This document shows, piece after piece, positions 5,279 through 8,056 of a stretch of DNA of 64,000 bases. The stretch lies in NCBI GenBank assembly GCA_018691345.1, contig JABGTJ010000039.1:33074-97073 (forward strand), given 5' to 3'. Positions within the stretch are counted from its first letter, which is position 1. The number at the start of each line of letters is the position of its first letter. This stretch comes from Methanobacteriota archaeon. GTDB lineage: Archaea; Thermoplasmatota; Poseidoniia; Poseidoniales; Poseidoniaceae. The notes under the pieces are model-generated. The model was not told the DNA's origin. It ran no database searches and was given only the letters and a program-made list of their open reading frames with translations. A program made the position numbers and the translations under genes.

Positions 5279-8056
5279 TCACTCTTCTTCGGAATGAATC
5301 GCCTTGAGTGCTTGTGCTGCTTCGAATTCTTCACGTGAAACTGTACCGTCGTTGTCGGTGTCCATTTCTTCAAACTCATCGGCTGGAGTTTCAAGTAATT
5401 CAGCAGGTAATCGTGCTGCGAAGATGATGTGGTCGACAAAGCCAGTTCGCTTGGCATTTCGAAGTTCCATCACCCGAGTGCCCTTGGATTTCTTGTTCTT
5501 TGTTTCCTTGGTTTGGGCTGCGTTAATTCGTATCATCATGCCCTTCTTCGTGAGTAAAAAGAGGTTGTCGTCAAGGTTTGGAATTTGACGAGCGCTGATG
5601 ATGAAATCACCGTTCTCGTGATCGAGGTTCATCGTAAACGCACCCTTAGCACCAGGCTTAGTCTTGCGGTATCCATCCGTTCGCAACTTTCCTTCGCCCG
5701 TTTCTGAATCGATTTTCTGGATACCTTCAGCATCGAGATCTGGCACCTTCTCAGAGGTACCAAGACGACTACGCTTCGCCATTCCATTTCGAGTGATGGT
5801 CAGAATCTGTGTATCGGTATTTTCCGTAGCCATCATAGCAACAACATGACCTCCATCTGCGTTCTTTCTGTTGCCGGTCTTGATGCCGTATACACCAGCC
5901 GATACACGGCCGGAGGAACGAATATCTGAACACGCAAAGCGGCTCGCAAATCCTGTGCTCGAAATCATAACAACCGATGAATCATTTGTTCCTGTTCGAA
6001 CATTTACCAAACTGTCACCGTCAAGTTTGAACCGCAATGCATACTTTCCGTTACGGTTGATGCGAACGTATTCTTCCAATTTGGTCTTCTTAATCAGCCC
6101 TAAGCGAGTAGCAAACAGCAAGAAGTGGCCTTCTGGAGATTCCAGTAAATCACGGGTAATCGGTAAGATGGTCACGATGTTTTCATCGTCCTGAATCTTC
6201 TCGATGACGTTGCGAATGTGGCTTCCACGAGCATGCCGGCTTCCAAGCGGAGTCTCCCAAGCTTTGAGGCCGTAGACTCGCCCCTTATCGGTGAAAATAA
6301 GCAATCGGTCTTTGCTGAAGCAAGTCACAATCAATTGTGGGGTATCTTCGTTCTTCGTAGCCACACCCTTGAGGCCTTTGCCTCCTCGATTTTGGACACG
6401 GAACAATTCAACCGGCATGTGGCGAATATAGTTATCTTCACTCAGAGTAATAGCAATTGCTCGCTCTTCAATCAAGTCTTCACGATTCATAGAAAGAGGC
6501 ATTGGGTCGATGAAGGAACGACGTTCATCACCATGGCGTTCGACCATTTCGTCAAGTTCAGCCAGCAGAATACTGAGGCGGCGTGTACGAGAACCAATGA
6601 TGTCCTGCAAGTCGGCGATACGAAGTTTCAGCTCTGCGTGCTCATTCTGAACCTTATCGACATCCAGTCGACTGAGTTGGTAAAGCCGGCGTTCTGCAAT
6701 GGCCTTGGATTGCGGCTCAGTGAATGTGAAGGGAGCAATACCAGGCATGGTTTCAGTACCTTGTAAGACTGCTTCAAACTGCTCTCGGCTCGAACTTGCT
6801 TTACCAACCGCTACGACATCATCGATGCGATCTTGTGCTAAGACAAGACCTTCCAAAATGTGCGCACGTGCTTGAGCCTTGTTCAAATCGAATTGTGCTC
6901 GACGTTCAATGATTGATTCACGATGTGATACGTGAGTATGCAGCATAACCGGTAGAGTAAGGAGGACGGGACGACCATCCAAAATCCCCATCATGTTAGC
7001 AGAATAAGATTCCTGCAAACGGCTGGATTTGAACAGTTGGTTCAGCACAGCGTGCGGGTCAGCATTGTTCTTGACCTCGATGACCACTCGGATACCTTCT
7101 TTCGAAGATTCGTCACGAATGTCTCGAATGCCGATGATAAGTCCTTTTGTGACCAGTTCAGCAATGTGAACCAACATGTCTGCCTTCTTGACCTGGTAAG
7201 GGATTTCATGGATGATGATTCTCTTACCTTTGGAATCATCCAGAACATCACACTTCGAACGGACGTGGAAACGGCCTTTTCCAGTCGTGTACATGTCATA
7301 GATTCCATCGATACCGTGAATGGATGCACCCGTAGGGAAATCAGGTCCTTTGACATGCTCCATGTATTCTTCTATAGAGATTTGCGGCATGCCAGTATTG
7401 GCTTCGCCTTCTTCGATAATACGATTGACGTGCAGGTGGATTGCACCCGCTACTTCGGTGAGATTATGCGGTGGAATTCGGGTTGCCATACCGACGGCAA
7501 TACCGTCGCTTCCGTTGAGCATCAGATTAGGTAGTCGCGAAGGGAGAACGGTTGGCTCCTGTTCCGAATCGTCAAAATTCGGTTGGAAGTCTACGGTCTT
7601 CTTGTCGATATCTTCGAGCATGTGCTTGGCAATTTTGTCAAGGCGGCTCTCTGTATATCGCATAGCAGCAGGCGGATCACCATCGATTGAACCGAAGTTT
7701 CCTTGGCCGTCGACAAGCGGATATCGGAGAGAAAACTCTTGCGCCATACGAACCATTGTATCGTAAATCGACTGGTCACCGTGAGGGTGGTATTTACCCA
7801 TGACTTCTCCGACTGAACGGGCGGATTTACTGAACTTCTTTTCGGAGGTATGCCCACCCTCGTACATTCCGTACAGAACTCTGCGGTGGACTGGTTTCAA
7901 ACCATCACGAGCGTCAGGAAGTGCTCTTCCAATAATTACGGACATGGCGTAATTAATGTACGATGTCTTCATCTCATCGTTCAGTGGATGATTCAACACG
8001 TTTTCATTTGAAATCGTTTCGTCTTCTTGGTGTTCTTCAATATCATCAGATGTCAA
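5279..8056 (-). CDS. gyrA: DNA gyrase subunit A, with a C-terminal EF-hand-containing acidic tail
   Basis: The N-terminus [34 protein letters not shown] reads like a GyrA catalytic domain. Length is 925 aa. The C-terminal tail ends ...[35 protein letters not shown]. Confidence 0.95.

Follow-up and report, generated by a model that had tools for sequence, protein, structure and literature searches.

The locus analysed here raises the question of whether a DNA gyrase subunit can end in a calcium-binding motif and, if so, what such a motif might do there. It lies in a stretch of 64,000 nucleotides (nt) of archaeal DNA, referred to as the window (contig JABGTJ010000039.1 of assembly GCA_018691345.1, positions 33,074 to 97,073 of the forward strand). 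The gyrA coding sequence in this window (5279..8056, minus strand; stop codon 5279-5281) translates into a gyrase subunit A (GyrA) of 925 amino acids (aa). Its host belongs to Candidatus Poseidoniaceae (Marine Group IIa, MGIIa); the closest genomes are metagenome-assembled genomes (MAGs) of that family, with GyrA identities of up to 97%. An earlier note on this DNA had described the end of the protein as a perfect 12-residue EF-hand loop with a helix on either side. We found that a single canonical EF-hand spans GyrA residues 892-924 and takes up about 33 of the 38 residues of the acidic C-terminal tail. We tentatively propose that this motif could make DNA supercoiling responsive to divalent cations.

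The EF-hand in the GyrA tail

The tail comprises residues 888-925 (5282..5395, minus strand) and is strongly acidic, with 14 Asp or Glu and 2 Lys or Arg among its 38 residues by composition count; the segment 5282-5400 encodes residues 887-925. The metal-binding loop of 12 residues (899-910; 5327..5362, minus strand) carries D1, D3, D5, G6, V8 and E12, exactly as the earlier note had read them, and the PROSITE pattern PS00018 matches at 5324-5362. When the last 60 aa were searched on their own, as the note had suggested, they scored above the Pfam cut-offs for both EF-hand_5 (28.2 bits, cut-off 25.9) and EF-hand_1 (27.4 bits, cut-off 25.4). In a comparison of the tail with all PDB sequences, EF-hand proteins were the sole matches (lanmodulin, sarcoplasmic Ca-binding protein, hippocalcin, calcineurin B and calmodulin). 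Composition-preserving shuffling of the last 45 residues produced the PS00018 pattern in 63 of 200,000 sequences (0.03%).

A lanmodulin-type, lanthanide-selective site was also considered and rejected. Lanmodulin (6mi5) appeared among the top PDB sequence matches owing only to the common D-x-D-N-D-G-T loop. The GyrA loop has no Pro at position 2, which is T, A, Q, V or L in the 47 related loci that carry the motif.

The tail is predicted to fold as a helix-loop-helix, in agreement with the helices that had been proposed on both sides of the loop. In an AlphaFold model of the C-terminal domain (CTD) with its tail, an entering helix (residues 892-898, ADEFEEM; 5363..5383, minus strand; model residues 388-394) is followed by the loop and by an exiting helix (residues 908-924; 5285..5335, minus strand; model residues 404-420). 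Both helices were also delimited by the tail-only model and by per-codon conservation. The exiting helix begins at loop position 10, as it does in canonical EF-hands. A tail-only model that included homologues carrying the motif reached a predicted local distance difference test score (pLDDT) of 78-91 over the motif and of about 91 over residues 901-910, with helices at 14-18 and 28-42. All 30 Foldseek neighbours of the 45-aa tail model were EF-hand proteins, and the model superposed over about 30 residues at about 1.0 Å on hands of EhCaBP1, S100 and centrin. The tail is thus predicted to be ordered rather than intrinsically unstructured, and it is conserved like a folded element. The tails of relatives that lack the loop look unstructured and are variable.

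Conservation and loss of the motif across Poseidoniales

GyrA sequences were extracted through the stop codon from 80 species-representative genomes (loci L001-L080). The motif was found in 47 of these loci: 46 have complete tails with the PS00018 loop at the same position, and in L067 the carrier tail is ended by the contig end within the loop. Loop-less tails, shorter but acidic, were found in 32 further loci. Among metagenome protein clusters, 22 of 120 have the loop. EF-hand_1 and EF-hand_5 matched each of the 46 distinct carrier tails (E <= 0.001), and none of 31 loop-less tails matched any Pfam family. The comparison with related GyrA C-termini that the earlier note had called for therefore gave a divided answer: the motif is conserved in more than half of the loci, but it has been deleted in many close relatives. 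In one locus, L062, Tyr replaces Asp at loop position 1 and also stands at position -2 (EFYAMYTDGDG), while the rest of the EF-type tail is intact. This tail no longer matches an EF-hand model, and it reflects either an assembly error or an EF-hand that was inactivated very recently.

Loop positions 1, 5, 6 and 12 (D1, D5, G6 and E12) are invariant in the 47 carriers, with both synonymous codons occurring. Outside the loop, F895 (position -4) and A914 (position 16) are invariant as well. Variation is found at position 3 (D or N), position 8 (V or I), position 9 (S, T or D), position 13 (F911; F or Y) and at M898 (M, I or L). Synonymous sites among carriers are saturated, with a pS of about 0.8. 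Judged from these sequences, the substitution pattern corresponds to classical EF-hand constraint. Mean pairwise identity among carriers is 0.74 in the EF segment and 0.75 in the propeller, compared to 0.60 in the short linker that precedes the EF segment and 0.26 in the spacer that follows it. Because the identity of the EF segment is close to that of the propeller and that of the spacer is far lower, the EF-hand behaves like a constrained folded element within an otherwise freely drifting tail. Our data show that purifying selection has maintained the EF-hand of the GyrA tail in dozens of species.

An acidic tail is present at the same position in every relative. It is 7 residues long in the shortest form (IDSEEEE), about 20 residues long in an unstructured-looking form and about 40 residues long where it forms the EF-hand. 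The last three residues are a separate matter. In the window, the terminal EEE-COOH is encoded at 5282..5290 (minus strand); according to the tails of the 80 loci and of 120 metagenome proteins, it ends nearly all Poseidoniales GyrA sequences, with or without an EF-hand, and it was kept through every deletion that removed the EF-hand. This retention suggests that the extreme C-terminus may have a function of its own.

In a neighbour-joining tree of the GyrA core, carriers are spread over several deep clades of Poseidoniaceae, among which loop-less clades are scattered, and a CTD-only tree that included metagenome proteins showed an equally patchy distribution. Simple parsimony on the neighbour-joining tree leaves gains versus losses undecided by itself. 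The nucleotide alignment gives more direct information. The EF-type tail has been shortened by an in-frame deletion of 60 nt in the group of L008, L011, L024 and L064 (remnant ...D-S-M-D-D-D-S-E-G...), of 54 nt in the group of L031, L032 and L034 (remnant EDEFD) and of 36 nt in L060. In each of these three cases the flanks are retained together with the EEE end. No remnants are visible in three other groups (the L038 group, L021 and the Poseidonia clade), where the EF-hand may have been absent from the start. Since the EF-type tails share their position and flanks, and since remnants of deletion remain, the sequences argue for one origin of the GyrA EF-hand followed by several losses, in at least three lineages. 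The motif is dispensable, because lineages have repeatedly lost it by clean in-frame deletion. The EF-hand is thus an accessory feature that is useful and has long been kept, yet can be given up.

Transfer or recombination of tails between lineages had been suspected since the carrier L007 sits in a loop-less clade. This was rejected: tail nucleotide identity in distant pairs is 0.77-0.83, which is explained by amino-acid constraint alone, and no clear nucleotide-level signal of recent tail exchange between lineages was observed. The main loop-less clade nearest to the window organism (L008, L010, L014, L015 and L064) includes several MAGs that come, by their isolate names, from Fram Strait and Antarctic samples; EF-hand loss may be linked to habitat. 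The last blade and tail were also searched with HMMER against 1.84 billion representatives. Among the best 150 matches, the EF segment was aligned in MGII-like GyrA fragments only; these matches were otherwise flooded by multi-EF-hand proteins, so that carriers in distant GyrA families could be hidden. A metagenome protein outside the window (P0122), of 1134 aa, Pro/Ser-rich and eukaryote-looking, carries a tandem array of about 12 EF-hands with the pattern FDxMDxDGDGVVSxEEFxRAQ. This repeat is strikingly near the consensus of the GyrA tail, which could reflect convergence on the EF-hand consensus or could be a hint of where the module came from.

The gyrase and its gene neighbourhood

The protein that bears the tail is a genuine DNA gyrase subunit A and not a topoisomerase IV ParC, and the name given to it in the earlier note was correct. 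Both GyrA equivalog models of NCBIfam score above their cut-offs, TIGR01063 with 910.3 bits (cut-off 877) and NF004043 with 941.8 bits (cut-off 902), and every ParC model scores below its cut-off (parC_Gpos 631.9 bits, cut-off 813; parC_Gneg 504.1 bits, cut-off 629). Pfam assigns DNA_topoisoIV (E = 1.2e-145) and six DNA_gyraseA_C repeats. The N-terminal breakage-reunion domain (PF00521, residues 44-501) is encoded at 6554..7927 and the catalytic Tyr134, in AAMRY of the motif AAMRYTE, at 7655-7657, both on the minus strand. The GyrA box, a hallmark of supercoiling-competent gyrase CTDs, is read directly from the sequence as QNRGGKG (residues 555-561; 6374..6394, minus strand) in the first CTD blade. 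The DNA-wrapping CTD, about residues 533-887 (5396..6460, minus strand), forms a six-bladed beta-pinwheel according to six PF03989 repeats and AlphaFold. The model of residues 505-925 shows a confident pinwheel with a pLDDT of about 85-96 across the blades, and in Foldseek searches of the PDB the gyrase CTDs 1zi0, 4g3n and 3l6v matched the CTD model best, with ParC CTDs behind. The assignment as a true gyrase A subunit rests on the equivalog scores, the catalytic Tyr, the GyrA box, the adjacent gyrB and these fold matches.

The gyrB gene (8049..10019, minus strand; Pfam HATPase_c, DNA_gyraseB, Toprim and DNA_gyraseB_C) lies directly upstream of gyrA. The gyrB stop region and the gyrA start overlap by 8 nt (8049-8056), which fits a translationally coupled gyrBA operon. 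MGII GyrA CTDs have an extra segment at about residues 765-800 (window about 5656-5763, minus strand), where the NCBIfam GyrA models stop aligning (the best stretch ends at 790). This segment is confident in AlphaFold and is found in EF-hand carriers and non-carriers alike.

Two further EF-hand insertions that had been reported in the window, at 28905-29090 and 60822-61197, turned out to be real, so that EF-hands occur in 3 of its approximately 50 proteins. The 50 non-overlapping open reading frames (ORFs) of the window contain 4 PS00018 matches, where 0.11 would be expected; shuffling never gave as many as 4 in 500 trials. One of the two insertions lies in a V_ATPase_I-family protein of 782 aa (59761-62109, minus strand), probably A-type ATPase subunit I. 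Two canonical EF-hand loops are inserted in it as a pair at about residues 337-394 (loops at 61039-61077 and 60928-60966), and Pfam EF-hand_1 scores 30.5 bits, above the cut-off. The other lies in an ORF of 433 aa whose family is otherwise unknown (28518-29819, plus strand). It contains one PS00018 loop (29034-29072) and an EF-hand_7 pair-type match at residues 133-184 with 28.8 bits, slightly under the cut-off of 30.

A possible role of the tail and comparison with known systems

In Escherichia coli and Salmonella, the last 35-38 GyrA residues are acidic. They compete with the DNA for the pinwheel's basic rim and control how DNA is wrapped, how efficiently it is supercoiled and which set point each species has (PMC6463007, PMC11626157). 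By analogy, we propose that the EF-hand makes the competition between tail and DNA depend on divalent-cation occupancy, so that the tail would act as a Ca2+-tunable supercoiling rheostat. An effect of Ca2+ on supercoiling is suggested by the sequence of the tail together with what the acidic GyrA tail is known to do in the two enterobacteria; we give this reading a probability of roughly 0.45. The loop would bind Ca2+, or possibly Mg2+ at rest, via D899, D901, D903, the backbone of T905, S907 and bidentate E910. Metal occupancy would fold a polyanionic stretch of the tail into a compact helix-loop-helix and would hide or neutralise 4-5 carboxylates. The folded tail may then compete differently with DNA for the beta-pinwheel, and wrapping and supercoiling would shift with Ca2+. 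In lineages whose acidic tail is short and has no loop, the supercoiling setting would be fixed.

Several points weigh against the rheostat. When full-length GyrA was scanned, EF-hand_5 and EF-hand_1 scored 22.2 and 22.8 bits, slightly under their gathering cut-offs. The 925-aa protein contains one PS00018 match and one stretch matching an EF-hand profile, and therefore no paired hand. EF-hands usually function and fold as pairs, and lone EF-hands can pair between chains; the lone hand weakens the label of a typical EF-hand domain, not that of an EF-hand motif. The pLDDT of the tail in the CTD-context model is only 61-69, and the Foldseek E-values for the 45-aa tail query are non-significant. 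Repeated loss of the EF-hand shows that gyrase works without the motif. The acidic-tail mechanism is established in enterobacteria only, and dependence on the tail varies by species (PMC6463007). MGII archaea are uncultured, and Ca2+ binding by their tail is read from its sequence. Finally, a docking site was sought by co-variation of the GyrA core and GyrB with independent losses, and none was found, with limited statistical power: only 4 GyrA-core columns changed in 3 of the 6 loss groups, all by conservative substitutions, and no GyrB column did.

The same facts can be read in other ways. The loop might be a constitutive structural site in which Mg2+ or Ca2+ is permanently bound, and thus one of several equivalent designs of an acidic tail with suitable length and charge, with no part in signalling. 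This would suit the many relatives that thrive with short unstructured acidic tails, the repeated loss of the motif and a tail that remains strongly acidic and nearly always has EEE at its end; a structural role is also reported for many DxDxDG sites of prokaryotes (PMC3123361). On the other hand, the ligand positions and the helix core are as conserved as the propeller while neighbouring tail residues drift, and this constraint exceeds what a requirement for charge or length alone would impose. We consider a purely structural site rather unlikely. That the motif is a chance EF-like string in a low-complexity tail, or an artefact of MAG assembly or annotation, is highly improbable, even though the tail is D/E-rich and all data come from metagenome-assembled sequences. 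A chance origin and a lack of conservation in orthologues were among the findings that the earlier note had named as speaking against its claim, and neither holds. Chance is ruled out by the rarity of the pattern in shuffled tails and by recurrence in many orthologues: no loop-less acidic tail matches an EF-hand model, and the loop is found in 47 independently assembled species representatives and in many metagenome clusters, with substitutions that preserve the motif.

Pairing offers another role for a lone hand. It could be a Ca2+-dependent module that pairs with another GyrA tail, with another gyrase complex or with another protein that has a single EF-hand, and that cross-links or recruits gyrase in this way instead of tuning the competition between tail and DNA. 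GyrA has only one EF-hand, the hydrophobic residues of the core between hands are conserved (F895, M898, V/I906, F/Y911 and A914), and the window encodes other EF-hand proteins. Moreover, the structural neighbours of the tail model include hands that are intermolecularly paired or domain-swapped, namely 1cta (a homodimeric troponin-C site peptide), 1ht9 and 3li6 (the EhCaBP1 N-domain trimer). However, only about 6-10 residues separate the EF-hand from the last beta-strand, which makes it unlikely that the two tails of one A2B2 complex meet, and neither a partner nor a co-varying site in GyrB or the GyrA core was found. We regard such pairing as unlikely. A more far-reaching idea is that MGIIa uses Ca2+ in the cytosol as a genuine second messenger that is connected directly to its core machinery. 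The GyrA hand, which might have arisen de novo from a D/E/G-rich tail, would then set supercoiling, and the EF-hand pair of the V_ATPase_I-family protein would act on energy conversion, together forming a eukaryote-like signalling layer. This seems distinctly improbable to us.

By setting the supercoiling of the whole chromosome, gyrase affects transcription and replication genome-wide, and in the best-studied bacteria it is the GyrA C-terminal tail that tunes this setting. MGIIa is an uncultured archaeal family that makes up a major part of the surface-ocean plankton. If the tail binds Ca2+, its motif would couple DNA topology directly and physically to divalent-cation status. This bears on whether Ca2+ serves as an intracellular signal in prokaryotes, and in archaea especially, a long-standing question that is poorly resolved. 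If the second-messenger idea were true, one of the most abundant planktonic archaea would have eukaryote-like Ca2+ signalling. The natural loop-less orthologues are ready-made comparison proteins for the role of the EF-hand tail.

The closest functional parallel is the GyrA tail of E. coli and Salmonella. Like the tail described here, it directly follows the sixth blade of the pinwheel, is strongly acidic and varies in length between related species. In contrast, it lacks a metal-binding motif and is described as an unstructured segment, whereas the Poseidoniaceae tail forms an EF-hand. The two show no detectable sequence relationship, and a function is assigned to the archaeal tail by analogy. 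In profile and structural searches, the GyrA tail matched the canonical EF-hand family only. It shares with calmodulin, troponin C, EhCaBP1 and calerythrin (PF00036/PF13202) the 12-residue DxDxDG…E loop, hydrophobic residues at positions -4, -1, 8 and 13 and the flanking helices. These proteins have domains of two or four hands, whereas GyrA is a large enzyme with one hand added at its end. Poseidoniales-specific hypothetical protein families with calcium-binding domains have been reported (Meheust et al. 2022, PMC9258230). They share with our case the lineage and the theme of lineage-specific Ca2+-binding modules, but they are hypothetical families, and an EF-hand on GyrA is unmentioned there, as it is in a survey of archaeal gyrases (PMC9348778).

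The earlier note had known of no EF-hand in GyrA C-terminal tails. In the open-access literature we likewise found none reported, neither for such a tail nor for any archaeal gyrase. Elsewhere in GyrA, a Ca2+ site has been published: M. tuberculosis GyrA has an EF-hand-like Ca2+ motif (504-DVSDEDLIAREDV-516), and it has been shown biochemically that Ca2+ modulates the activities of this gyrase (PMC3479174). An equivalent site was looked for in the window GyrA and rejected; the corresponding segment lacks the ligand residues, with no Asp at position 1, and has no PS00018 match. Both proteins have a PS00018-type Ca2+ motif in the GyrA subunit. The mycobacterial one lies in the linker between the N-terminal domain and the CTD and adopts a non-canonical loop-helix-loop-strand arrangement, and M. 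tuberculosis GyrA has no acidic tail. A Ca2+ site in GyrA is therefore already known from M. tuberculosis, and what is new here is a canonical C-terminal EF-hand joined to an acidic tail of the regulatory type.

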